Below are positions 12,762-56,575 of a stretch of 64,000 bases of DNA, piece by piece (position 1 is the stretch's first letter; each line of letters begins with the position of its first letter). The DNA is from Candidatus Eiseniibacteriota bacterium (GTDB lineage Bacteria; Eisenbacteria; RBG-16-71-46), in the NCBI GenBank assembly GCA_963717505.1, contig OY970342.1, positions 298,791 through 362,790 of the forward strand. Direction: 5' to 3'. The notes under the pieces were generated by a model. That model was not told the origin of the DNA, searched no databases, and saw only the letters and a list, made by a program, of their open reading frames with translations. The position numbers were made by a program, and so were the translations under genes.

Positions 12762-14972
12762 ATGTCGAATCCAGTGTTGTCCCGCGTTGACTTGTTCATC
12801 ACCAGGGACAAGTCCGCAGCCGATCGATCGCAGATCCCGCTCCCCAGTGCTCGGGTCGAGTTCTACGGTCAGGGAGCGACAGTGGCGGACGATGTCACCG
12901 TTCCGGGTTCCGGTTCGGAAGATGTCGACGTCTACGATCCCGGCGATCTCGAAGTCGGAAGCACACTTCGAGCGAACGGTTCGGGACCCGAACTCACCGT
13001 CACGGCCATTACGACAGTACCTGCGTTTCCGGGGGTAACGCAGGTCACCCTCTCCAACGGCGGAGCCTCGGACCTCGATCTGACCACGGGAATGCGTCTG
13101 ATCATTACCTCCAACCGGCCGACGCTCTACAGCGATCCGCTTGGGACGGTCGACCTCGGCAACCCATACGTAACCGCCGACAACGACAGTCGAGTCCTCG
13201 CCTACATCAATCGTCGTCGGTACGACTACACGATTCCCGGCAAGGTCTACGCTCAGGTGACCTCGAACGGCACCTTGGCGGGTGGGAACGTGCTGTCGTG
13301 GAACCACAACGACACCAACATCACGGCTCCCAACCGAATGGTCCTGGTCGGAATTTCGTGGCAGGGCTCGGTCGGCGGTGAGACCATCGACTCCGTCACG
13401 TACGGTGGAGTCGCTATGTCGTTGGTGGGCCAAACTAGCCTGACATCGGTCTACAAGCTTGCGAACCCACCGACCGGGCTGCAGACGGTGGTCGCGAACT
13501 TTGGAGCGTCGTCGCCGCCGGCGGTAGTTTACGCCGTCGGAGGAGCGGTCACCTATTCCGGCGTAGACGCCCTCTTGCCACTCGGCTCGGCATCAACGGC
13601 AACCGGGACCTCGACGGCACCCAGCGTTGGTGTCGGGACGACGTACGCAGATGGCCTAGTGTTCGACACAATGAGCGCGGGTGGCACCACCACGGCCAGC
13701 GCCGGCAGCGGGCAGACGCCGCAATGGAATCAAGCCTCGGGTGGAATCACCGTCCGCGGATGCGGCTCCCTGGAAGACGGAACGGGCTCCTCGGTGACCA
13801 TGAGCTGGACGTTGGGCACGAGCCGACCCTGGGGGATCCTGGGCGTAGGGCTCAAACCTGCGCTGCGAATTCATGTCGACGCGTTGGGAGGCACCCAGCG
13901 GTCACCATCATGGCTCAACGCGAGGGATTTCGAGAGCATTCAAGTCGCGATCGACACCCTCCCGCCAGCAGGCGGAGTTGTCTACATCCCAGGCGGCGAG
14001 TACGAAGTCTTCGGCGAGGTTGACACCGTTCCAGGCCTCTTGATTCCGCCGGGGAAGGCAGTACATCTGCTGGGCGATGGGGCGGATCGAACGATCATCT
14101 TCTGCAGCGACAAGAACGTCGACGTGATCTGGGTCCAGGGCTCCTACTCGACAATCGAGAACCTCACAATCCGTGGCGTTCCGGAAGTGCCAGATGGGGC
14201 GACGGAGGAGATTCGGAGGCGAAGAGGACGCGGGATCGTCGTGGGTCAGGTCGGTGGGGCGGCCGAAGTAATGCGCCGGATCTCCATTCTCGGCTGCCGC
14301 ATCATCGACACCGCAAGTTGGTGCCTCTTCTTCTTGGACGAGGACGAACCGAATGGAGAGGCGGAGAAGACCCTGACGATTTGGGTCCACGTCGAGCGAT
14401 GCGAGTTTCGCAATAACATTGTCGCCGGCGTACTGGGCCTTGGCAAAGGCTGCTTTCAGCACCTCTACGTAAGTTGTGGGTGGGAGTTCTTCAGAGGCTT
14501 CGCGGTGAGCGCCATAGGAGCCGAGGGAGTTACATTCCAGACCTGCACACTCGAGGATCGGCGAAGCGTGCCTGAGACGGTTATTGCGCCAGAGGACGAG
14601 TTTCCATATGTCGCATTCGATGGATGCAAGAATATTCGCGTCTTGTGCTGCTGGTTCGAGTCACATGCGACCAGCGCGGGTGACAACGAACACGACACCA
14701 AGTGGAGGTTCATCAACGTCGGCCCGACGTTAGCGTGTGAGGACGTGACAGTGGATAGTTGCCGGTTCGTCAGGCACGCAGGCAACTTTCCTAGGCTCAT
14801 GAAGGTCAAGAACGCTTCCAAGGCCATCTCTCTGATCAACCCAACCTGCACACTCCTTGATACTTTGACGACAATAGGTTCACATCAACAGACCCTAATG
14901 ACCTCGATGTCGTGGCAGAGGAAGGTAGCGAAGGCGAGATCGGGAGCGAGGTCTACCTCTCCGGAGGCATAG
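12762..14972 (+). CDS. Phage tailspike / pectate-lyase-fold (right-handed parallel beta-helix) protein, no signal peptide
   Basis: RBS AGGGAGA upstream of ATG 12762. Central region …GGVVYIPGGEYEVFGEVDTVPGLLIPPGKAVHLLGDGADRTIIFCSDKNVDVIWVQGSYSTIENLTIRG… is typical of beta-helix depolymerases and tail fibers. The C-terminal 30-40 aa look non-native (possible frameshift into the next ORF). Confidence 0.65.
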   Translation: MSNPVLSRVDLFITRDKSAADRSQIPLPSARVEFYGQGATVADDVTVPGSGSEDVDVYDPGDLEVGSTLRANGSGPELTVTAITTVPAFPGVTQVTLSNGGASDLDLTTGMRLIITSNRPTLYSDPLGTVDLGNPYVTADNDSRVLAYINRRRYDYTIPGKVYAQVTSNGTLAGGNVLSWNHNDTNITAPNRMVLVGISWQGSVGGETIDSVTYGGVAMSLVGQTSLTSVYKLANPPTGLQTVVANFGASSPPAVVYAVGGAVTYSGVDALLPLGSASTATGTSTAPSVGVGTTYADGLVFDTMSAGGTTTASAGSGQTPQWNQASGGITVRGCGSLEDGTGSSVTMSWTLGTSRPWGILGVGLKPALRIHVDALGGTQRSPSWLNARDFESIQVAIDTLPPAGGVVYIPGGEYEVFGEVDTVPGLLIPPGKAVHLLGDGADRTIIFCSDKNVDVIWVQGSYSTIENLTIRGVPEVPDGATEEIRRRRGRGIVVGQVGGAAEVMRRISILGCRIIDTASWCLFFLDEDEPNGEAEKTLTIWVHVERCEFRNNIVAGVLGLGKGCFQHLYVSCGWEFFRGFAVSAIGAEGVTFQTCTLEDRRSVPETVIAPEDEFPYVAFDGCKNIRVLCCWFESHATSAGDNEHDTKWRFINVGPTLACEDVTVDSCRFVRHAGNFPRLMKVKNASKAISLINPTCTLLDTLTTIGSHQQTLMTSMSWQRKVAKARSGARSTSPEA

Positions 14973-15526
14973 CTCACGCAGCGTCTGGAGAGATCAATTC
15001 CGTTGCCCTCTTCCTACCGAGCGTGAAGGGTCTCTCCATCTTCGCGTCGGGCCCCAGGGTAACGCCGCCTAGCGTGTCATCGGACGATCGGGACAGTACC
15101 CAAAGCCTGGCTCTAGACGCGAAGCAGGGAGACATGATTTTCAACACCACGACCGACCGTCCGGAGGTCCGCATCGGTGCCAGCTGGCAGCAGATTCCAA
15201 GTCGAGCAGCGTCGGCGGAGTTTGTGGACGACACCAGCATGTCGACTCCAGAAGACCTAATTTCGGATGGAGTTGCCGGTTTCTACCGGATCTCAGTGTA
15301 CCTCGAGAAAGTGACAAGCGGCGCCGGCACTGTTCAGGCCGATGTAACGTGGACCGACGACGCAACGCAACGCACTCGTTCAGTGTCGGTGACCGACTCG
15401 GGGGCGAACGTGCTCGCCAGCGACGAATTCCCGATCTACCTCGCCGCTGGCGAGTCCATCGCATACCAGATTCTGACCCCCCAGAGTCATCAGGCGAGGG
15501 TACGATTGCAGGTAGAGGTAGCATAG
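14912..15526 (+). CDS. Hypothetical acidic protein; may be the frameshifted C-terminal continuation of the tailspike-like gene
   Basis: The frame is open from 14861 and overlaps the previous ORF by ~110 nt. GTG start at 14912. No recognised domain. Confidence 0.4.
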   Translation: MAEEGSEGEIGSEVYLSGGIAHAASGEINSVALFLPSVKGLSIFASGPRVTPPSVSSDDRDSTQSLALDAKQGDMIFNTTTDRPEVRIGASWQQIPSRAASAEFVDDTSMSTPEDLISDGVAGFYRISVYLEKVTSGAGTVQADVTWTDDATQRTRSVSVTDSGANVLASDEFPIYLAAGESIAYQILTPQSHQARVRLQVEVA

Positions 15527-15528
15527 CA

Positions 15529-16926
15529 ATGAATTCTCCTTGGGGCTGTGGTCTGTTCCGTCATACGAGCTTGGCCATGGCCCTGGGGGTCACATGTCTT
15601 GTGCGTCCGGTGGCCGCCCAGCTGACGTTTGATTCACCTCTTCGGTATCCTGCGAACGACGCTTATGTTGTTACCTTCCTTCATTTCGACGGCGACCAAG
15701 CGCTCGATCTAGCAGTTCTTCAGGACGGTGAGGGTACTTTCGACGACTCTCTACTGGTCTTCTTGAACGACCGGGCAGGCAGCTTCGTCGCCGGCCCGGC
15801 GTTTCCCTGTAGCGCAGGCGTCGGGCGCATTGCGGCTGCTGACCTAGACCATGAAGGGCAGGATGATCTCGTAGTTACGTGCGTCTATGGAGATGTGATG
15901 GTCTTCTTGAACAAGCCATCCGGCATCATGGTGACCACTTACCAGGTGCTCTCGAATCCAGGCTACGTCGATGTCGTCGACATCGATCATGATAGTGACA
16001 TGGACTTGGCGATTGCCATCAATGGGTCGAACGGCATTCAATTGCTGACGAACAGTGGCAACGGCCAGTTTACATTTGGTCAACGACTAACTGGGATAGG
16101 GGTAATTGGTCAGATTGATTCTGCAGACTTCAACGAAGATGGCCACGTCGACATCGTTGTCGGCGTCGAAAATTCATCACGGTTAAACATCCTCTACGGG
16201 GATGGCGCGGGCAACTTCACACGAACGTGGTTCTCTTGGAACCCGCAATTTGCAGTGGCATCGGCGGACTTCGATGATGACGGCCATGCAGATATTGCCG
16301 CACGGGATGGGTCCCTGCGGTTCTTCTGGGGTGATGGTCAGGGTGGGTTCAGCGGGCCGACGTCAGTGTCGACTTTTGGGGCCGGGCTGTTGACGGTTGA
16401 CGATTGGAATCGGGATGGCCTTCCGGACTTAGCCGTGTCGTCCTACCTGAACCAATCGTACCAGACGTTTGTTGAGAATTTGGGCGCCCGCGGCTTTTCT
16501 GCCCAACCCTACGACCTTGGTGGCTTCGGCACTGCGAGACTCGCGTCTGGAGATGTCGATGGGGATGGCTGGCCGGATCTTGCGGGAGGCAGCAAGTCCG
16601 CTTCGATCGTGTCGGTTCTTCGGAATGCCAATGCCCCAGCTACAGGGGTAGAGAGGTCACCACCAGCGGTCCGTCTGACCATCGCTCCGAATCCCGCGCA
16701 GCGTAGATTCACCGCGGCGTTCGATCTGTCCGGAGCAGCCACCGCGACCCTGGAGCTCTGGGACGTGCAGGGTAGACGCCTGGACCGGCGTGACGTCGGC
16801 TCGTTCGGTCCCGGCCGCCACCAGATTGCATTCGGGAACAGCCGCCGACTGGCGCCTGGGATCTATCTCGTCCGACTGATCCAGGGAGATCGAGTGACCA
16901 CCGCACGCGCCTGCCTGATTGAGTAG
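15529..16926 (+). CDS. Secreted FG-GAP/VCBS-repeat (integrin-alpha-like beta-propeller) protein with T9SS-type C-terminal sorting domain
   Basis: ATG 15529 lies 2 nt after the previous stop. Signal peptide MNSPWGCGLFRHTSLAMALGVTCLVRPVAAQ. Repeated …D.D.DG..D…G-x-G-x-F motifs. C-terminus …APNPAQRRFTAAFDLSGAATATLELWDVQGRRL…APGIYLVRLIQGDRVTTARACLIE matches the CTD shared by five other genes here. Confidence 0.8.
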   Translation: MNSPWGCGLFRHTSLAMALGVTCLVRPVAAQLTFDSPLRYPANDAYVVTFLHFDGDQALDLAVLQDGEGTFDDSLLVFLNDRAGSFVAGPAFPCSAGVGRIAAADLDHEGQDDLVVTCVYGDVMVFLNKPSGIMVTTYQVLSNPGYVDVVDIDHDSDMDLAIAINGSNGIQLLTNSGNGQFTFGQRLTGIGVIGQIDSADFNEDGHVDIVVGVENSSRLNILYGDGAGNFTRTWFSWNPQFAVASADFDDDGHADIAARDGSLRFFWGDGQGGFSGPTSVSTFGAGLLTVDDWNRDGLPDLAVSSYLNQSYQTFVENLGARGFSAQPYDLGGFGTARLASGDVDGDGWPDLAGGSKSASIVSVLRNANAPATGVERSPPAVRLTIAPNPAQRRFTAAFDLSGAATATLELWDVQGRRLDRRDVGSFGPGRHQIAFGNSRRLAPGIYLVRLIQGDRVTTARACLIE

Positions 16927-48490: not shown

Positions 48491-49234
48491 TCATGTGTTC
48501 GGGGGTCGATTGCGGGCGCTCCCCCGGCCCCAGCGCGTCCAGGCGAACCACGTCGATCCAGCTACCAGAATGACAGCGATCGCGAACCATTGCACGGCGT
48601 ATCCGAGGTGCAGGCCCTCGTTCAGGGGTGCTTCGAGGGTGCGCTTCGGAAGCGCAGGCACGCCGGGGCCGGCATGCTGGTGAATGAAGAACCCGGCGAC
48701 CGGATACGGGAACACCCGGGTGAGCGAGTCGCGATTGAGCCGGGCCGCGGAAAACACTTGGGGACCGTCGCCGGGAAGCCGGTACGGCGCGCGTCCCTGG
48801 GTCTCCAAAGCTCGGGCCATTCCCTCGACTTCGACCGGCCCCGGCTCGGGATACTCCTGAGGCCGTGCAGTCAGGGCGTCCTCGGCTGGCAGCCAGCCGC
48901 GTTCGATCAGCACCCACTCGCCGGTGAGCGTCTGGAGCGGCGTGACGACGCCCACGCCGGGCTCGCCCTCGTGCATCCGCCCACGCAGAAGGATCTGGCG
49001 GGTTTCGTCGTAGGTGCCGCGGACCCTCACCCGCCGGCCGATTACGGCCGCATCGCCCGTACCGGCGGCGGGCCATTCGACCGGGGGCGCCGACAGCGAT
49101 GCCGCGCTGGTCGCGTTGAGAGTGTGTTTCGCTTCGAGGCGGGCGAGCTGCCAAAAGCCGAGGCGCACGCACACGGCCGCGGCCGCGAGCACCGCGACCG
49201 CCGCGAGCGCGCCGAGTACTTTCCCGCGCGTCAC
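48491..49234 (-). CDS. SURF1-family cytochrome oxidase assembly protein
   Basis: GTG 49234 overlaps the CDGSH stop (GTGA). TM + …LGFWQLARLEAK… and …GTYDETRQILLRGRMHEGEPGVGVVTPL… SURF1 signature. The upstream part of track ORF (to 49345) overlaps the CDGSH gene. Confidence 0.7.
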   Translation of the reverse strand: MTRGKVLGALAAVAVLAAAAVCVRLGFWQLARLEAKHTLNATSAASLSAPPVEWPAAGTGDAAVIGRRVRVRGTYDETRQILLRGRMHEGEPGVGVVTPLQTLTGEWVLIERGWLPAEDALTARPQEYPEPGPVEVEGMARALETQGRAPYRLPGDGPQVFSAARLNRDSLTRVFPYPVAGFFIHQHAGPGVPALPKRTLEAPLNEGLHLGYAVQWFAIAVILVAGSTWFAWTRWGRGSARNRPPNT

Positions 49235-49464
49235 GGCGCCGGCTTGGGCGCCGGCAGGTCGAACGCGATCAACTGCGATTGGAAGCCGCAGGTTTTGTGG
49301 GTGCCGTCGCAGAACGGTTTGTTGGACGACTGCCCGCAACGACACAGGGTGACGCGCTGGCGACCGGCGAGCCCGAAGGACCTGCCCTCCTGGTCGACGA
49401 TCTCGAAGTCACCCTCGACGCGCAGCGAGCCGTTGTTCATGACGGTGATCTTGGTGACAGCCAT
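49231..49464 (-). CDS. CDGSH iron-sulfur domain protein (78 aa)
   Basis: Strong RBS AGGAGGA upstream of ATG 49464. Motif CRCGQSSNKPFCDGTH. Confidence 0.8.
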   Translation of the reverse strand: MAVTKITVMNNGSLRVEGDFEIVDQEGRSFGLAGRQRVTLCRCGQSSNKPFCDGTHKTCGFQSQLIAFDLPAPKPAP

Positions 49465-49513
49465 GTTCGTTCCTCCTGGTCGCGTATGCCGGCCCGGCGT
49501 CGGGTCGGAAAAG

Positions 49514-50596
49514 CTAAGGCGCGGTGCGCATGTAGGGCGGGCGCGTCGCGCGCAGCTCGTAACAGGTGCGCCCGATGCCGTGACTCCAGAAGCGCGGCGG
49601 ATCGCCGGAGCGCGGATCGGGCATCGAGTCGGCGCCGGCAAATACCGCGCACAGCACGAAGCGCACGGAATCGATGGTTCGGTATTCGTAGGGCACCCCG
49701 GTGACCGGGTCGGTGATCGAGGTCAGACCGGTGCGCGGCTCTCGGATCAGCGCATCGAGCGAAGCCGGCAGCGTCGAGTGCTCGCCCCAGTGGACGTCCA
49801 CCGCGTCGGCGATCGCGCGCAGCTCGCTCACCCGGCGCGTATCGAGCTGGCGGTCGCGCTCGCGCCCGGGCGAGCCCACGAACCAGAGTCCGACCGCCAT
49901 GCTGACCACGGCGCCGGCAATGCCGAGCCGCCCGAGGACCTGGCGCCGGGCTCGTGCGGTCGTGCCTTCGGTTTCGTCGCGGCGCAGGTCGGCCAGGTAG
50001 TGGCCGAACACCACACCGGCGATCGCGAACACCACCGCGACCTTGAGAACAAATCTCGGCGCGACCTCGCCGCCGAGCACCGCGGTGACGAGCACGATCA
50101 GGTCCCCGATCATCACCAGGGCGGCGAGGAACAGCGTCAGGTAGGTGAGCCACTTGCGAATCCGCGAGCTGCGCTTTTCCGGGTCGCCGGCCATCGTGCG
50201 GCCGATCACTCGCCCGACGAACAGGAACACCGGCAGCCCGATCACCAGCGACGCGACCGCACTCCGGGCGGCGTTCGCAAGCGGGATGCGCGTGGAATAC
50301 ATCTGCGTCGGGTCGTGCAGGCTCCAGTTGATCAGCGCGAACCAGATGGCGCCGACGTTGAACGCGATGACGTACAGAGTCGCGAACAAGACCAGGTGGA
50401 GAAACGCCTCCCGGGCCGACAGGTAGGGCCGGCGCCGGGGCACCGGGACCGGGAAGTCGACCTCGGCCCAGGAGCCGAGGGCCGAGTCGGCCTCCTCGGG
50501 CGGCCAGCCGGCCTTGAGCAGGGCCTCTCGAATGGCGGCTCGCGGAACCCCGCGGGCGAGCGAATCTCGAACAAACGTATGGAGTTCGGCGTTCAT
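49514..50596 (-). CDS. Membrane protein with N-terminal cytoplasmic domain and ~6 TM helices; hypothetical
   Basis: 360-aa ORF, ATG 50596. Hydrophobic core segments. No family assigned with confidence. Confidence 0.55.
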   Translation of the reverse strand: MNAELHTFVRDSLARGVPRAAIREALLKAGWPPEEADSALGSWAEVDFPVPVPRRRPYLSAREAFLHLVLFATLYVIAFNVGAIWFALINWSLHDPTQMYSTRIPLANAARSAVASLVIGLPVFLFVGRVIGRTMAGDPEKRSSRIRKWLTYLTLFLAALVMIGDLIVLVTAVLGGEVAPRFVLKVAVVFAIAGVVFGHYLADLRRDETEGTTARARRQVLGRLGIAGAVVSMAVGLWFVGSPGRERDRQLDTRRVSELRAIADAVDVHWGEHSTLPASLDALIREPRTGLTSITDPVTGVPYEYRTIDSVRFVLCAVFAGADSMPDPRSGDPPRFWSHGIGRTCYELRATRPPYMRTAP

Positions 50597-50784
50597 GGCC
50601 TGGGGACGCTAGCCGCCGGCCGCCCCCGGGTCCAGTCCGGCGCCCAGGCGCCAGCTACCGCCGTGCAACAGCGGGCCAGGCCATACGTAGAATGGTTCGT
50701 GCCTGGCCCGTTTTCGAGGTCCGCGCGACGGGCGCCGGAGCGGCTCCTGTCGCGTCGCGGGTCGGTTCGAAAGGAGCGGTACAG

Positions 50785-51087
50785 ATGCTCGAAGGTTTCT
50801 GGGGTGTTCTCGCGCTCGTGGCGATTGCCTGCCTGGTCGCGCTGGGGCTGCTCTGGTGGATCTTCACGTTGCCGTTCCACTTCCTCGGCTTCCTGTTGAC
50901 CGGGCTCGGCGTCGCCCTGGTGGTCACGTTCCTGGTCGTCGCGGGAATCGTGGCGCTCGCCGGGCTGGCCCTGGCCGGCGTCCTGATCCTGGTGCCGATG
51001 ATCGTGATTCCCCTCCTTCCGGCAGTCATGGCCATGATGCTTCTCTGGTGGCTGTTCTTCCGGAAGCCCCACGCGAAGACCGCATGA
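50785..51087 (+). CDS. Small very hydrophobic membrane protein (3 TM), hypothetical
   Basis: RBS AAAGGAGC upstream of ATG 50785. Stop overlaps the lepB start. Confidence 0.5.
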   Translation: MLEGFWGVLALVAIACLVALGLLWWIFTLPFHFLGFLLTGLGVALVVTFLVVAGIVALAGLALAGVLILVPMIVIPLLPAVMAMMLLWWLFFRKPHAKTA

Positions 51088-51677
51088 CCCGGCCCTGGTC
51101 CCAGCGCATTCGCGAGTATTTCCCGGGTGCGCTGGTCATTCTGTTGCTGCTGGCGGCGCGCTCGTCGCTGGCGGACCACTACGTGGTTCCGACCGGATCG
51201 ATGGAGTGGACGCTCGAGCCCGGCGATCGCGTGGTCGCGGACAAGCGGGCCTTCGGCCTGCGGGTTCCGTTCACGTCGTTCGAGCTGATTCCCGGAGAGT
51301 CTCCGGCGCGCGGCGATCTCGTGGTGTTCGATGCGCCCGACAACGGCATGCGACTCATCAAGCGCGTGGTCGCCGTCTCGGGCGACCACGTCGCGGTGCG
51401 CGACGGCCACGTCTGGATCAACGGCGCGCCGCTCGAGGCCGGAGCCGAATTCGAACGCTACGGCTCGCGTGTCGCGCACCTGAATCTGGGATTCGGGGGC
51501 GGACCCGACGTCCCTCCGACCGAGGTCCCGCGCGGGCAGGTTCTGGTCCTGGGGGATGCTCGGGGCAACAGCCGAGACGGCCGCTTCTTCGGGTTCGTGC
51601 GCGAGGATGAGATCTACGCGCGAGGCGTGGGCGTCTACTATCGAGCTTCCCGCGGGCTGGTCTGGCTCCCGCTTTAG
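51084..51677 (+). CDS. lepB: Signal peptidase I (S26 family)
   Basis: ATG 51084 (ATGA overlap). Motifs GSMEWTL (catalytic Ser box), LIKRVVAVSGD (Lys box), GDARGNSRDGRFFG. Confidence 0.85.
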   Translation: MTRPWSQRIREYFPGALVILLLLAARSSLADHYVVPTGSMEWTLEPGDRVVADKRAFGLRVPFTSFELIPGESPARGDLVVFDAPDNGMRLIKRVVAVSGDHVAVRDGHVWINGAPLEAGAEFERYGSRVAHLNLGFGGGPDVPPTEVPRGQVLVLGDARGNSRDGRFFGFVREDEIYARGVGVYYRASRGLVWLPL

Positions 51678-51746
51678 CGGGGGAAATCTCCTCTTCCGTG
51701 CAGTAGACTCGGGGCGCCAACCCAAACCCGCGCCGCGGGAGGGAAT

Positions 51747-52145
51747 ATGCGTTCCGTGCCGAGACTGCTCTTGCTCGCCCCGCTCCTGCTGTTCGTGGCC
51801 GGCTGCACGTCGGGGCTCAAGAAACCGATCACCACCGCCGAGATCCAGCCCGACAGCCAGGGGATTCAGCGCGTCGAGCTGAACATGCACAGCTACTACT
51901 TCGAACCCAGCCGGATCGTGGTCCACACCGGGCTTCCGGTGGAGCTGGTGCTCAAGAACCGGGCGAAACTCGTGCCCCACAACGTGACCTTCGTCGACAC
52001 CTCGTTCGCCAAGAGCGAGGGCGCGTGGCTCGGAACCGGTCACCTGAAGTTCACTCCGCAACGGCAGGGTGAGTTCGAGTTCTATTGCAAGGTCGACGCC
52101 CACGCGAAAAAGGGAATGACTGGCGTGCTCGTCGTGGTGCCATGA
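51747..52145 (+). CDS. Cupredoxin (plastocyanin/azurin-like type-1 copper) lipoprotein
   Basis: RBS GGGAGGG upstream. Lipobox FVAGC. Cu ligands His (VPHNV), Cys (FYCKVDAH), His, Met (KKGM). Confidence 0.8.
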   Translation: MRSVPRLLLLAPLLLFVAGCTSGLKKPITTAEIQPDSQGIQRVELNMHSYYFEPSRIVVHTGLPVELVLKNRAKLVPHNVTFVDTSFAKSEGAWLGTGHLKFTPQRQGEFEFYCKVDAHAKKGMTGVLVVVP

Positions 52146-53221
52146 TCCCGCGGCTGGTGGCGCTGGCCACCGCCGTTCCCCCCCACGTCGTCGGCCAGGA
52201 CGAAGCGCGCGAGTTCTCGCGCAACCTCTTCCGCGAGGTGCTGACCGAGGACAAGGACCGCCTGCTCGCGATCTTCGACAACGCTGGAATCAAGAACCGA
52301 AACGTGTGCGCGCCGCTCGAGTGGTACGCGCACGACCACAGCTTCGCCGAGAAGAACGACCTCTACATCGAGAACGCCGTTCGCCTCGGCGCCCAGGTCG
52401 CCCGGGACGTGATGGCGAAGGCCGGGCTCGGCCCCGGCGACGTCGACCATCTGGTGTTCGTGTCGTCGACCGGAATCGCCGCGCCCAGCGTCGACGCGCG
52501 GCTGGCCAACGAGCTGGGATTCCGCAGCGACTTCAAGCGCACGCCAATCTGGGGACTCGGGTGCGCGGGCGGCGCGGCCGGGCTGGCGCGGGCGCGCGAG
52601 TTCGCGCTCGCTGATCCCGGGTCGCGAGTTCTCCTGATCGCGCTCGAGCTGTGCAGCATCACCTTCCAGCGCAACGATCTCTCCAAACGCAACCTGGTCG
52701 CGGCGTCCTTGTTCGGCGACGGCGCGGCGGCGGCTTTAGTGGTGGCCGACGACGGCGCCCCGCACAACGGCCACCGGCCGCTCGATCTGGTCGCGACCTC
52801 GAGCACGTTCTGGTCGGACACGCTCGACGTCATGGGCTGGGACGTGGACGGCACCGGGCTGCACGTGATCTTCGCCCGCGACATTCCGACCATCGTCCAC
52901 GAGCGCGTGCGGCCGGGGCTGGAAGAGTTTCTGGCCCGTCACGACCTGACCCTCGCGAAACTCGACCATCTCGTCGCGCATCCGGGCGGCACTAAGGTGC
53001 TGGCCGCGTATCAGGAGGCTCTGGGCTTGCAGCCCGATGCGCTCGACCACGCGCGCGAGGTGCTGCGCGACCACGGGAACATGTCGTCGCCCACCTGCTT
53101 GTTCGTGCTCGAACGCTTCATGCGGTCGGAGTCGATACGGGCGGGCGAAACCGCGGTCCTCTCCGCGCTCGGCCCCGGCTTCTGCGCCGAGTACGTCCTG
53201 CTGCGCGGGGCCTCTGCATGA
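52142..53221 (+). CDS. Type III polyketide synthase (chalcone/stilbene-synthase family; alkylresorcinol/alkylpyrone-synthase-like)
   Basis: ATG 52142 overlaps the cupredoxin stop (ATGA). Active-site Cys context WGLGCAGGAAGL, HPGGTKVL, GNMSSPTCLFVL. Confidence 0.9.
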   Translation: MIPRLVALATAVPPHVVGQDEAREFSRNLFREVLTEDKDRLLAIFDNAGIKNRNVCAPLEWYAHDHSFAEKNDLYIENAVRLGAQVARDVMAKAGLGPGDVDHLVFVSSTGIAAPSVDARLANELGFRSDFKRTPIWGLGCAGGAAGLARAREFALADPGSRVLLIALELCSITFQRNDLSKRNLVAASLFGDGAAAALVVADDGAPHNGHRPLDLVATSSTFWSDTLDVMGWDVDGTGLHVIFARDIPTIVHERVRPGLEEFLARHDLTLAKLDHLVAHPGGTKVLAAYQEALGLQPDALDHAREVLRDHGNMSSPTCLFVLERFMRSESIRAGETAVLSALGPGFCAEYVLLRGASA

Positions 53222-53751
53222 GCGACACGGGCGCCGCAGGCGTTCCGGTCGTTACGCTGCTCGCCGGCTTCCTGATCTGCCACGTCGTCCAGCGGCTCTC
53301 CGAGCTCTACATTTCTTCGAGAAACACGCGGGCGTTGCTGGCCCGCGGTGCGGTCGAACACGGGCAGAGGCACTATCCCTGGATCGTCGTGATGCATGTG
53401 TTGTTCCCGATCGCGCTGACCGCCGAGGTGCTCCTGCTTCGGACGGGCCCCGGTGCGCTCGGGCTCCTTTGGCTGGCACTCTGGCTCGCGGCGCAATTGC
53501 TGCGTTGGTCCACCATGCAGGCTTTAGGAGAACGTTGGACCACTCGCGTGCTCGTGCTCCCCGGGGTGCCCCTCGTGACCTCCGGCCCCTATCGGTGGCT
53601 GCGGCATCCCAACTACGTCGCGGTCGTGATCGAGCTGCTGGCCGCGCCGCTCATGTTCGGAGCCTGGCGTACGGCGCTCCTGTTCTCGGCGGCCAACGCG
53701 CTGGCGTTGACAGTGCGAATTCGTTGCGAGGAGCGGGCGCTCCAGGGCTAG
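53218..53751 (+). CDS. Isoprenylcysteine-carboxyl-methyltransferase (ICMT)-family membrane methyltransferase (SrsB-like)
   Basis: ATG 53218 overlaps the PKS stop (ATGA). 4-5 TM. Motif RHPNYVAVVIE (RHPxY) and C-terminal EERAL. Confidence 0.8.
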   Translation: MSDTGAAGVPVVTLLAGFLICHVVQRLSELYISSRNTRALLARGAVEHGQRHYPWIVVMHVLFPIALTAEVLLLRTGPGALGLLWLALWLAAQLLRWSTMQALGERWTTRVLVLPGVPLVTSGPYRWLRHPNYVAVVIELLAAPLMFGAWRTALLFSAANALALTVRIRCEERALQG

Positions 53752-53756
53752 AATGC

Positions 53757-53789
53757 CCCTCGTTCGGGCCCGTCAGCGGCCCGAACGAG
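53757..53789 (+). promoter_or_regulatory. Perfect 13-bp hairpin (cctcgttcgggcc-cgtcagc-ggcccgaacgagg) between ICMT stop and NHL-gene start; 3' arm abuts the RBS GAGGAGG
   Basis: Read directly from the sequence. Candidate terminator/attenuator or RBS-occluding structure. Confidence 0.4.
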
Positions 53790-53797
53790 GAGGTCGC

Positions 53798-56575
53798 ATG
53801 CACCGCATCTCGAGATTCCTTTCTGCCCTCGGATTCCTGGTCGTCCTCACCCACGTGGCGACCGCCGCCACCGCGCCGACCACTCCGACGTTCGTCCTGT
53901 CGTGGGGCAACGTTGGTTCCGCGCTCACGCAGTTCATCTATCCGTTCGATGTGGCAACCGACGCACTCGGCAACCTCTACGTCGCGGACCAGCTCAACCA
54001 CCGCATACAGAAGTTCGATCGCCTCGGGAACTACCTGGGTCACTGGGGCTCGTTCGGTACCGGTGACGGCGAGTTCGACAACCCGTTCGGCGTGGCCATC
54101 GATGCTGCCGGCAACGTGTACGTCTCGGACAATGGCAACCACCGAATGCAGAAGTTCAGCAGCACGGGCGCCTACCTCGCCCAGTGGGGTTCGTTCGGGA
54201 CCGGCAACGGACAATTGCGCTACCCCATGGCCCAGGTCATCGACGCCGCTGGCAATGTCTATGTCGTGGACCAATACAATCAACGCATCCAGAAGTTCAC
54301 GGCTGCGGGGGTCTACGTCACGCAGTGGGGCACGCTGGGCAGTGGGAACGGCCAGTTCTGGAATCCGGTCGGCATCGCCCTCGACCCGGCGGGCAACGTC
54401 TACGTCGCCGATCAGAACAACCACCGCATCCAGAAGTTCAGCCCCGCCGGCGCCTATCTCTCGCAATGGGGCTCGTTCGGCAGCGGCAACGGACAGCTCT
54501 ACTTCCCGACCGGCGTGGACATCGACGCGACCGGCAACGTCTACGTCGCCGATCGATACAACCACCGGATCCAGAAGTTCAGCGGTGCGGGCGACTACCT
54601 CACTCAGTGGGGTTCGAACGGAAGCGGCCCTGGGCAGTTCGTCGAACCCACCGGCGTGGCCGTCGACGCCGCCGCCAACGTGTACGTCGCGGACTACTAC
54701 AATCATCGCATCCAGAAGTTCAACGGCGCCGGCGCGGCCCTCTCCGAGCCGGCGGGCGCGTACCTGCTCAAGTGGGGCACGTTCGGCAGCGGCGCCGGGC
54801 AGTTCAACTATCCCTGGGACGTGGTCCTCGACGCTGCCGACAACATCTACGTCGCCGACTACAGCAACAACCGGATCCAGAAGTTCAGCCGCACGGGCGC
54901 CTACCTCTCCCAGTGGGGCTCGCCCGGCAACGGCAACGGACAGTTCAACGCTCCCGCGCGCCTGGCCATCGACGCGGCGGGGAACATCTATGTAGCCGAT
55001 CAGTACAACAACCGCATCCAGAAGTTCAGTAGCGCCGGCACCTACATCACCCAGTGGGGCTCCTTGGGCGCCGGTGACGGACAGTTCAGCTACCCCATTG
55101 GGCTGGCCGTGGACGCCGCTGGCAACGTGTACGTTGCCGATACGTACAACAGCCGCATCCAGAAGTTCAGCGACTCCGGCACCTACCTCACCCAGTGGGG
55201 CTCGCTCGGCAGCGGCAACGGGCAGTTCAATTATCCGATCGCCATCGCGACCGACGCCGCCGGCAACGTCTACGTGGCGGACTACTTCAACCGTCGCATG
55301 CAGAAGTTCAGCAGCACAGGCGCCTACATCACACAGTGGGGCACGCCCGGCAGCGGCAACGGCGAGTTCGGCTTCCCCCGAGGTGTGACCGTCGATGCGG
55401 CCGGGAACGTCTACGTGAACGACGTCGGCAACTCCCGCATCCAGAAGTTCACCGGCGCGGGGACCTACCTCACCCAATGGGGCTCGCTCGGCAGTGGTGA
55501 TGGCCAATTCAACTTTTTCACCGGCGTGAGCACCGATGCGTCGGGCAACGTCTACGTTTGCGATACCGAAAACCAACGCATCCAGAAGTTCGTGATGCCT
55601 CCAGCCATCGCCCTGGTCTCGGACGTCGGGAACGATCAGGGCCGCCAGGTTCAAGTTCGATTCTTGCGTTCCTCGGCGGACGCGCCCGGCACCGGAGTTC
55701 TGGTGACCGGATACGAGGTCTACCGGCGTAACGATCCGCTCCCGGGAGTCGCGGCGGACGGGAAATCAGCCGAGAGTGTCGGCGCCTCGCGGCCGAACGA
55801 TCCGCCGGATGGGCTCCTGCTCGCCGGCTGGACCTATCTCATGACCGCGCCGGCCCACGGTGAGAGCGAGTACAACGTCGTGGTGCCGACGCTGGTCGAC
55901 GCCACCGCCGGATCGCTCGAATACTCCGCGTTCATGGTCCGGGCTGCGTCCGGCGACCCGTTCACTTTCTATGACTCGGGCGTCGACAACGGCTTCTCGG
56001 TGGACAATCTGTCGCCGCCCGCTCCAACGCCGTTCACGGCGGCCTACGCCGCAGGCGCCACCAACCTGCATTGGGGTGTGAGCACGGCTTCCGACTTCGC
56101 CACGTTCCGGCTCTACCGCGGCGAAAGTGCCGACTTCGTTCCGGGAGCCGGCAACCTCGTTGCTGCCTCTCCCGACACGGGCTACATGGATGAGGGGCCT
56201 GCTGGGCGCTATTACAAGCTGTCCGCCGTGGATTGGAATGGAAACGAAAGCCCGCACGTGCTGGTTGGCCCGAACACGACATTGGACGCGCCGGCCGCTC
56301 CCGCGGTGGCGTTCGCCCTCGAGGGGGCGCACCCGAACCCCGCGGTCGGCGGCCGAATGATGGTGGCGTTCGCGTTGCCATCGGACGCGCCGGCCACGAT
56401 CGAGCTGATCGACCTCGCGGGCCGGCGGGTGCTGGCGCGCTCCGTGGGTTCCCTGGGTGCAGGGCGCCACACCTTGGACCTCGCAGCGGGACATAGGTTG
56501 GCGCCCGGTGTGTATCTCGTGAGGCTCACCCAGCGCCAAAACACGCGGGTCGTTCGGGTGGCGGCGATCAACTAG
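53798..56575 (+). CDS. Secreted NHL-repeat beta-propeller protein (~14 NHL repeats) with T9SS C-terminal sorting domain
   Basis: Strong RBS GAGGAGG upstream of ATG 53798. Signal MHRISRFLSALGFLVVLTHVATAA. Repeats …G.GNGQF..P.GVA.D..GNVYVAD..N.RIQKF…. CTD …HPNPAVGGRMMVAFALPSDAPATIELIDLAGRRV…GVYLVRLT…. Confidence 0.85.
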   Translation: MHRISRFLSALGFLVVLTHVATAATAPTTPTFVLSWGNVGSALTQFIYPFDVATDALGNLYVADQLNHRIQKFDRLGNYLGHWGSFGTGDGEFDNPFGVAIDAAGNVYVSDNGNHRMQKFSSTGAYLAQWGSFGTGNGQLRYPMAQVIDAAGNVYVVDQYNQRIQKFTAAGVYVTQWGTLGSGNGQFWNPVGIALDPAGNVYVADQNNHRIQKFSPAGAYLSQWGSFGSGNGQLYFPTGVDIDATGNVYVADRYNHRIQKFSGAGDYLTQWGSNGSGPGQFVEPTGVAVDAAANVYVADYYNHRIQKFNGAGAALSEPAGAYLLKWGTFGSGAGQFNYPWDVVLDAADNIYVADYSNNRIQKFSRTGAYLSQWGSPGNGNGQFNAPARLAIDAAGNIYVADQYNNRIQKFSSAGTYITQWGSLGAGDGQFSYPIGLAVDAAGNVYVADTYNSRIQKFSDSGTYLTQWGSLGSGNGQFNYPIAIATDAAGNVYVADYFNRRMQKFSSTGAYITQWGTPGSGNGEFGFPRGVTVDAAGNVYVNDVGNSRIQKFTGAGTYLTQWGSLGSGDGQFNFFTGVSTDASGNVYVCDTENQRIQKFVMPPAIALVSDVGNDQGRQVQVRFLRSSADAPGTGVLVTGYEVYRRNDPLPGVAADGKSAESVGASRPNDPPDGLLLAGWTYLMTAPAHGESEYNVVVPTLVDATAGSLEYSAFMVRAASGDPFTFYDSGVDNGFSVDNLSPPAPTPFTAAYAAGATNLHWGVSTASDFATFRLYRGESADFVPGAGNLVAASPDTGYMDEGPAGRYYKLSAVDWNGNESPHVLVGPNTTLDAPAAPAVAFALEGAHPNPAVGGRMMVAFALPSDAPATIELIDLAGRRVLARSVGSLGAGRHTLDLAAGHRLAPGVYLVRLTQRQNTRVVRVAAIN

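Follow-up and report, generated by a model that had tools for sequence, protein, structure and literature searches.

An optional cupredoxin lipoprotein gene overlapping a type III polyketide synthase and its methyltransferase partner in a candidate phenolic-lipid operon of an Eisenbacteria-type lineage

The present study analyzes a three-gene operon in a 64,000-nt stretch of DNA (hereafter the window) from Candidatus Eiseniibacteriota bacterium (OY970342.1, positions 298,791-362,790 of the forward strand). Between positions 51747 and 53751 of the window the + strand carries, in this order, genes for a cupredoxin lipoprotein, a type III polyketide synthase (PKS) and a membrane methyltransferase of the ICMT family. 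The cupredoxin gene (51747..52145, 132 aa; Pfam Cupredoxin_1 1.8e-9, Copper-bind 5e-5) follows a Shine-Dalgarno-like GGGAGGG identified by inspection at 51737..51743, 3 nt 5' of the ATG, and GGAGG-type motifs occur at the equivalent spot in relatives. Its TGA stop overlaps the ATG start of the PKS gene in an ATGA at 52142..52145, read directly as gtgccATGAtcc. The PKS gene (52142..53221, 359 aa counted from that ATG; Chal_sti_synt_N, PF00195, 1.5e-31 and Chal_sti_synt_C, PF02797, 2.2e-18, each above its gathering cut-off) ends in a second ATGA at 53218..53221, read as ctgcATGAgcg, in which the methyltransferase gene starts (53218..53751, 177 aa; Pfam ICMT 3.5e-30, PEMT 4e-10). A first-pass annotation had named these three genes and an ATGA at both junctions; the open reading frames (ORFs) were found where it placed them, the Pfam matches agree with its assignments, and both overlaps are present.

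The first gene product is predicted, from its sequence and a structural model, to be a small exported, membrane-tethered type-1 copper electron carrier. The N-terminus is a lipoprotein signal, MRSVPRLLLLAPLLLFVAG-C20, with the lipobox L-F-V-A-G-C20 (signal peptide and lipobox at 51747-51806 on the + strand, Cys20 codon at 51804-51806). Gly19-Cys20 is found in at least 90% of the aligned cupredoxins (30 homologues), and a relaxed lipobox pattern in 108 of 130 family-sized proteins, a set that includes truncated ones. The four putative copper ligands, His78 (51978-51980), Cys114 (52086-52088), His119 (52101-52103) and Met124 (52116-52118), are invariant across the 30-homologue alignment and spaced Cys-x4-His-x4-Met, a pattern present in 125/130 of the family-sized cupredoxins, and the earlier description of a lipoprotein with His/Cys/His/Met ligands is thus upheld. 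PF13473 and PF00127 both exceed their cut-offs. An AlphaFold2 model (pLDDT 85) shows a beta-sandwich preceded by some 20 residues of flexible linker, and a Foldseek search with the model returned cupredoxins at probability 1.00 with target-normalised TM-scores up to 0.90; the best neighbours were a Cupredoxin_1 protein of B. anthracis (4hcf, uncharacterised), AcoP, CupA, auracyanin and plastocyanins, and the top sequence-profile match was the N-terminal cupredoxin domain of a Hyphomicrobium-type nitrite reductase. Like the window protein, auracyanin (Chloroflexus/Roseiflexus), AcoP (Acidithiobacillus ferrooxidans) and 4hcf are small proteins of cupredoxin fold that carry a His-Cys-His-Met site and are tethered to the membrane through a flexible linker, but their sequence identity to it is just 20-25%. 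The genes of cupredoxins of the auracyanin and AcoP type lie with those for respiratory complexes, or the proteins act on such complexes (alternative complex III, the cox operon), and we know of none from this group that has been tied to a polyketide synthase. A single type-1 copper site is a one-electron carrier and not an oxygenase, and nothing in the cupredoxin points to an oxygenase.

An alternative explanation could be copper handling, with a CopI/CupA-like protein binding or detoxifying periplasmic copper while the phenolic lipid shields the membrane from copper-driven oxidation. CupA is among the structural neighbours, and the NCBIfam CopI model (NF051440) does match weakly, over the N-terminal 47 residues only, but at 31.5 bits against a cut-off of 280. 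Membership in the CopI copper-resistance family was rejected on this score and on the lack of a full-length match. The ligands are also the classical His-Cys-His-Met set of electron transfer rather than the Cys/Met Cu(I) sites of CupA, and no copper exporter, CopA, CusF or copper sensor lies beside any copy examined. We regard this explanation as quite improbable.

The second gene product appears, by homology, to belong to the long-chain alkylresorcinol/alkylpyrone synthase kind, from which its product is also deduced. Its catalytic triad, Cys141 (GLGCAGG, 52562-52564), His280 (HPGG, 52979-52981) and Asn313 (GNMSS, 53078-53080), all on the + strand, is invariant among close homologues and aligns with that of M. 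tuberculosis PKS11, a long-chain alkylpyrone synthase. PKS11 is the nearest solved structure (1.4e-63, 35% identity); THNS (2e-49) and plant CHS (about 1e-40) match less well. The JGI annotation of close homologues is alkylresorcinol/alkylpyrone synthase. Together, these homologue names and the match to PKS11 bear out the suggestion of the first-pass annotation that the PKS and the ICMT-like protein form a pair of the SrsA/SrsB type. Whether cyclisation is to a pyrone or a resorcinol cannot be predicted from the sequence because the position matching ArsB Trp281 and ArsC Gly284 is occupied by Leu277, with Leu or Val across the clade; this residue was likewise not predictive of cyclisation mode in a published case (PMC9827899).

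The methyltransferase has several hydrophobic segments, as in a small polytopic membrane protein. Identity as a true protein-prenylcysteine methyltransferase was rejected, its score against the NCBIfam isoprenylcysteine methyltransferase model being 36 bits where the cut-off is 160, and by sequence it would be an enzyme of the BpsB/SrsB kind, presumably O-methylating the PKS product. An ICMT gene lies directly 3' of the PKS gene in nearly all of about 80 related loci from several phyla, and pairs of this type, BpsAB, SrsAB and DquAB, yield methylated long-chain phenolic lipids (PMC9827899). The two-gene loci BpsA/BpsB of Bacillus subtilis and DquA/DquB of Sporomusaceae resemble the present locus in having a type III PKS followed by an ICMT-like membrane methyltransferase, and in a PKS of the long-chain alkylpyrone/alkylresorcinol group (PMC9827899). 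The window differs from them in the addition of a blue copper lipoprotein gene 5' of the PKS and overlapping it, in a host from an uncultured lineage labelled Eisenbacteria, and in Leu277 of the PKS.

The association of cupredoxin and PKS is conserved well beyond this genome. We looked up eight cupredoxin homologues with 50-69% identity, and in 8/8 the PKS gene follows the cupredoxin gene, with the ICMT gene next wherever the contig reaches, except in one degenerate copy (L156; labels of this form are our own locus numbers). The junction between cupredoxin and PKS is a 4-bp NTGA overlap, with ATGA, GTGA or TTGA, in all 33 distinct junctions from other contigs, and the start codon takes its first base from the final position of a conserved Pro codon at the end of the cupredoxin gene. 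The first-pass annotation had taken non-conservation of this overlap in relatives as the sign of a cupredoxin unrelated to the cluster; instead, every one of the junctions keeps it. The junction between PKS and methyltransferase is looser, with a -4 overlap in 13/20 relatives and gaps of 1-13 nt in the remainder. Because the same gene order and the 4-bp overlap recur at each of the 33 junctions, the arrangement of the triad is far beyond chance. The genes that flank it fall into at least five contexts: lepB; SurA-S4 upstream with FtsE/FtsX/M23 downstream; serC-serA, i.e. serC and 2-hydroxyacid dehydrogenase genes upstream of the triad; hisS-VanZ; and nar/ECF sigma. Since flanking genes differ in this way among loci, the triad travels as a unit. 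In the window it lies 69 nt downstream of a gene for a lepB-like signal peptidase I (50856..51677, + strand; Pfam Peptidase_S26 8.6e-35), as had been annotated, but this neighbour is outside the conserved module and adjoins the triad in none of the relatives examined.

Distances between cupredoxins and between PKSs co-vary, with a Mantel r of 0.74 over 22 linked loci and none of 2000 permutations as high, and a neighbour-joining tree built from the cupredoxin family groups the PKS-linked copies in one inner clade. Because the linked copies form this single clade and the distances co-vary, the pattern fits a history in which the cupredoxin would have become linked to the PKS a single time, in an ancestral member of the Eisenbacteria-like lineage, and then been inherited with it as a unit. 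Median ratios of nonsynonymous to synonymous substitution (dN/dS, NG86) were 0.43 in the cupredoxin and 0.38 in the PKS. The genome is 67% GC and its synonymous sites are close to saturation, such that values below 1 show purifying selection on both genes and no more.

Several further features were seen at linked loci. One complete triad (L042, JBLMXB010000167.1) is on a contig binned as Hyphomicrobiales, and both its PKS and its cupredoxin nest in the Eisenbacteria-type clade; the label is probably a binning error rather than a sign of transfer. In one subclade (L001:5885-5925, L002, L013, L036, L090, L094-L096) a direct repeat GGCATC-N17-19-GGCATC is found about 85-110 nt 5' of the cupredoxin start, its second copy invariant in 9 sequences and the motif absent from the window, and it may be a candidate regulator binding site. 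Genes for a LytS-type kinase and a LytTR regulator are paired 2-5 kb 5' in L001-L004. The strongly conserved DNA 5' of some relatives is a conserved neighbouring region with its terminator, and belongs to no Rfam family. The degenerate copy (L156:7419-10343) is a second copy of the module in a metagenome-assembled genome (MAG, GCA_040961615.1) that also holds L001. It consists of an extra plastocyanin-like lipoprotein (YHCNFHVSMGM motif), the family cupredoxin, the PKS and a methyltransferase that breaks off after some 50 residues and continues in frame as a Ser/Thr-kinase fragment; narHJI, an ECF sigma/anti-sigma pair and a group II intron reverse transcriptase are encoded nearby. This copy could be a genuine rearrangement or an assembly chimera.

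Our best reading of these patterns is that a phenolic-lipid operon of the BpsAB/SrsAB type recruited, on one occasion, a periplasmic one-electron carrier as an optional partner. Because the cupredoxin stop overlaps the PKS start, the two proteins would be co-translated from one mRNA. By homology, the cytoplasmic type III PKS would build an alkylresorcinol or alkylpyrone by condensing malonyl units onto a long-chain acyl starter, and the ICMT-like membrane enzyme would O-methylate this product, following the chemistry of BpsAB/SrsAB, to leave a methylated phenolic lipid in the inner membrane. The cupredoxin would then be an optional one-electron partner on the periplasmic side, meeting the head group of the lipid where the membrane faces outward. 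We infer this functional link, in which the tethered protein acts on the head group at the periplasmic face, only tentatively, and would put it at somewhat under an even chance.

Direct redox chemistry of the cupredoxin on the lipid is plausible. Ordinary type-1 sites have potentials of roughly +0.2 to +0.4 V and resorcinol-type phenoxyl couples lie well above +0.7 V. From these potentials, reduction of lipid phenoxyl radicals by Cu(I) would be strongly favourable and oxidation of a resorcinol by Cu(II) unfavourable, and recycling of an antioxidant or oxidation of a quinol therefore fits better than the copper-dependent oxidation of a resorcinol. The likelier direction would thus be re-reduction of phenoxyl radicals by the Cu(I) cupredoxin, recycling a membrane antioxidant; alternatively, the cupredoxin might take electrons from a quinol form of the lipid that has been further oxidised, i.e. 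further hydroxylated. Resorcinol oxidation by the cupredoxin would be less likely, and the protein could not itself hydroxylate and hence would be no substitute for SrsC. A more specific version of this proposal is that the cupredoxin is a dedicated redox partner, swapping single electrons with a phenolic or quinol head group and either regenerating an antioxidant or draining a polyketide quinol to a terminal acceptor. We think this version unlikely. Several observations weigh against a functional link of cupredoxin and lipid in general.

First is that the cupredoxin is dispensable. In a scan with the PKS, taking one genome per species, the PKS-ICMT pair was almost universal among the 80 closest PKS loci, whose hosts include MAGs labelled Eisenbacteria, Latescibacteria and Krumholzibacteriia as well as Brevibacillus, Tumebacillus and others at about 50% identity, while the cupredoxin was confined to the Eisenbacteria-type clade and patchy there. 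Among the 41 species-level PKS-ICMT loci of that clade with enough upstream sequence to score, the cupredoxin was intact at nine, reduced to a remnant at three and lacking at 29. The first-pass annotation had proposed the cupredoxin as a partner within the cluster; it is indeed a conserved, coupled member of the operon in relatives, but not a fixed one, with about 70% of the closest PKS-ICMT loci lacking it. The remnants differ in form. One keeps only the last 14 residues and the overlap (L010, ending in HAKKGMTGTLVVVP before the stop), one is shortened with loss of a His ligand (L030) and one is frameshifted (L028). The PKS tree mixes loci that have the cupredoxin with loci that lack it, even at the level of sister pairs. 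Two loci without it (L031:3090-3230 and L034:3660-3800) share about 1.47 kb of upstream DNA with three that have it (L058, L059 and L033), along with the upstream terminator hairpin and the AGGAGGA ribosome-binding site, and their PKS start codon lies exactly at the cupredoxin-start position of the other three. This indicates that the cupredoxin ORF was cleanly excised from these two loci, the PKS inheriting its leader and ribosome-binding site. The cupredoxin has been lost repeatedly and is an optional accessory of the PKS-ICMT operon.

Such losses could also be expected if the arrangement were a historical accident, in which the cupredoxin gene landed 5' of the PKS once and was kept by the constraint of translational coupling on PKS expression, with no function in common. 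The clean losses are frequent, one decayed remnant (L010) retains just the 3' end that bears the overlap, and cupredoxin and PKS each occur independently in many genomes. A neutral passenger, however, would decay much more uniformly, and the linked clade instead shows invariant copper ligands and purifying selection on the whole ORF over about 50% sequence divergence, and the unit has moved intact among contexts. We consider an accident of this kind improbable, to about the degree that we doubt a dedicated redox partner.

Secondly, the cupredoxin family is not restricted to this setting. A metagenome scan seeded with the cupredoxin alone returned 66 loci, of which 61 could be assessed; the cupredoxin is followed by a PKS in 25 and free-standing in the other 36. 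The family is large, with more than 100 clusters above 200 bits in a profile search, and unlinked members account for every outer clade, as well as for three small clades that lie among linked copies. The operon cupredoxin thus appears, from its placement in the tree, to have come from an otherwise free-standing family. The neighbours of free-standing copies are mixed (M1 aminopeptidase, PMT_2 glycosyltransferase, IspG, hydrolases, NHL proteins, FabF-like synthase, MazG). In addition, one relative (L158) has a menaquinone-synthesis gene of the MqnA/MqnD (futalosine) type (VitK2_biosynth), 5 kb from its cupredoxin, and because of this the PKS lipid would not be needed as the only quinone. Finally, we know of no type-1 cupredoxin with a lipid or small phenol as its substrate.

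Two groups of free-standing copies have recurrent neighbours. One variant is convergent with an M1 aminopeptidase gene of 875-888 aa on more than 24 contigs (L158-L160, L163-L164, L100). In one outer subclade (L124:593-1960, L128, L134-L137) the cupredoxin gene starts 27 nt after a gene for a FabF-like beta-ketoacyl synthase, which is a second, independent tie of the cupredoxin family to a condensing enzyme of lipid synthesis.

It is possible that the cupredoxin is co-regulated with the lipid genes and nothing else. It would then be a general periplasmic carrier, donating to a terminal oxidase, nitrite reductase or N2O reductase, and needed in the same physiological state as the phenolic lipids, such as stationary phase, hypoxia or envelope stress, with the common transcript giving joint control and the protein never contacting the lipid. 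The free-standing relatives with their variable neighbours are consistent with this, being typical of soluble carriers such as azurin and pseudoazurin, as are the closest structures, which are electron carriers (AcoP, auracyanin, plastocyanin, the nitrite reductase N-terminal domain). The extra module copy (L156) has narHJI and an ECF sigma/anti-sigma pair next to it, the window encodes the oxidase assembly factor SURF1 2.4 kb upstream, and the PKS-ICMT pair stays intact after cupredoxin loss. On the other hand, an exact 4-bp overlap in 33/33 junctions and transfer as a unit among at least five contexts are rarely kept by co-regulation, and no respiratory complex consistently adjoins linked copies or free-standing ones, the latter having no fixed partner of any sort at the metagenome loci. 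The shared-state account seems to us possible but on the unlikely side, although a better prospect than an accident of position.

A related question is whether the lipid is a quinone. PKS-derived polyketide quinones serve as electron carriers in other bacteria (PMC9927152), and this is in favour of a redox role for the cupredoxin. An FAD-dependent oxidoreductase is encoded in each of the known quinone-forming clusters, namely SrsABC, the PkQ operon, hidABC and the planctomycetal operons (PMC9927152, PMC10896814). By contrast, no FAD hydroxylase of the SrsC, PkQ or HidB type occurs in or next to the operon in the window, the part of the 4.16-Mb genome that the search covered, as the first-pass annotation had noted, or in the contexts of relatives, which is a further point against a functional link of cupredoxin and lipid. 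An alkylquinone product was rejected for the operon as encoded because no such hydroxylase is found in any context examined. SrsABC of Streptomyces griseus, the mycobacterial/Streptomyces PkQ operon, hidABC and planctomycetal mtr-fdo-T3PKS are nonetheless similar to the triad in their tricistronic form of PKS, methyltransferase and third component, and they make membrane phenolic lipids, some of which function in respiration (PMC9927152, PMC10896814). The difference is in the third gene, which in those systems encodes the quinone-building enzyme, a cytoplasmic FAD-dependent hydroxylase or oxidoreductase, and in the window an exported type-1 copper carrier with no oxygenase chemistry.

Outside the three genes, folding prediction finds a 40-nt GC-rich hairpin on the + strand at 53755..53794, directly 3' of the methyltransferase stop (-37.2 kcal/mol, z = -4.1; 0/200 shuffles fold as well). 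It has a perfect 13-bp GC-rich stem, CCTCGTTCGGGCC / GGCCCGAACGAGG, without a U-tract, and overlaps the GGAGG ribosome-binding site of an NHL-repeat gene with its ATG at 53798. The hairpin is likely the 3' boundary of the operon, and may act in two ways, terminating the operon transcript and masking translation of the NHL-repeat gene. A consensus terminator scan of 50700-54000 did not call it and found no + strand terminator, and a promoter scan of the same interval found no sigma-70-like promoter. Rfam gave no matches in the whole window or in three relatives, and no tRNAs were found. The gene that directly follows the operon (53798-56575, + strand) encodes a 925-aa protein with at least nine NHL repeats, and a longer ORF call also matches, weakly, a Por/T9SS-type C-terminal sorting domain; NHL and FlgD-Ig proteins akin to it recur around related loci. 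Just upstream of lepB, on the - strand at 48491-50596, SURF1 is grouped with a CDGSH iron-sulfur protein and a DUF5671 membrane protein, and no oxidase subunit genes are near this cluster. Farther away, 14001-16000 has a GC content of 0.577 compared with about 0.67 elsewhere in the window, and holds a 736-aa ORF without a Pfam match and an FG-GAP repeat protein; it might be foreign DNA.

The PKS-ICMT pair is of an already known kind, and what is new is an exported electron carrier as the third component in place of a tailoring enzyme. A full-text literature search returned no paper connecting a type III PKS or alkylresorcinol with a cupredoxin, and the titles or abstracts of surveys of Eisenbacteria biosynthetic gene clusters contained nothing alike. 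To our knowledge, the partners of the PKS in every type III PKS lipid cluster described so far are cytoplasmic tailoring enzymes. The cupredoxin has been cleanly lost more than once, which supplies natural controls and restricts any claim to an accessory, condition-dependent function. The system is also a tractable one, with three small genes, a soluble copper domain of 112 residues and synthetic alkylresorcinols as possible substrates. If the cupredoxin were a dedicated redox partner, it would be the first with a lipid substrate, and the operon would represent a minimal two-component electron path of lipid and copper protein outside the Actinobacteria. The role of phenolic lipids is debated, with membrane stiffening, cyst and spore envelopes, antibiotic tolerance and alternative respiratory quinones all proposed. 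An exported electron-transfer protein whose gene overlaps that of the PKS, and which has travelled with it through about 50% divergence, is an independent genomic hint that, in an uncultured diderm lineage, these lipids may be involved in redox reactions on the outer side of the membrane.

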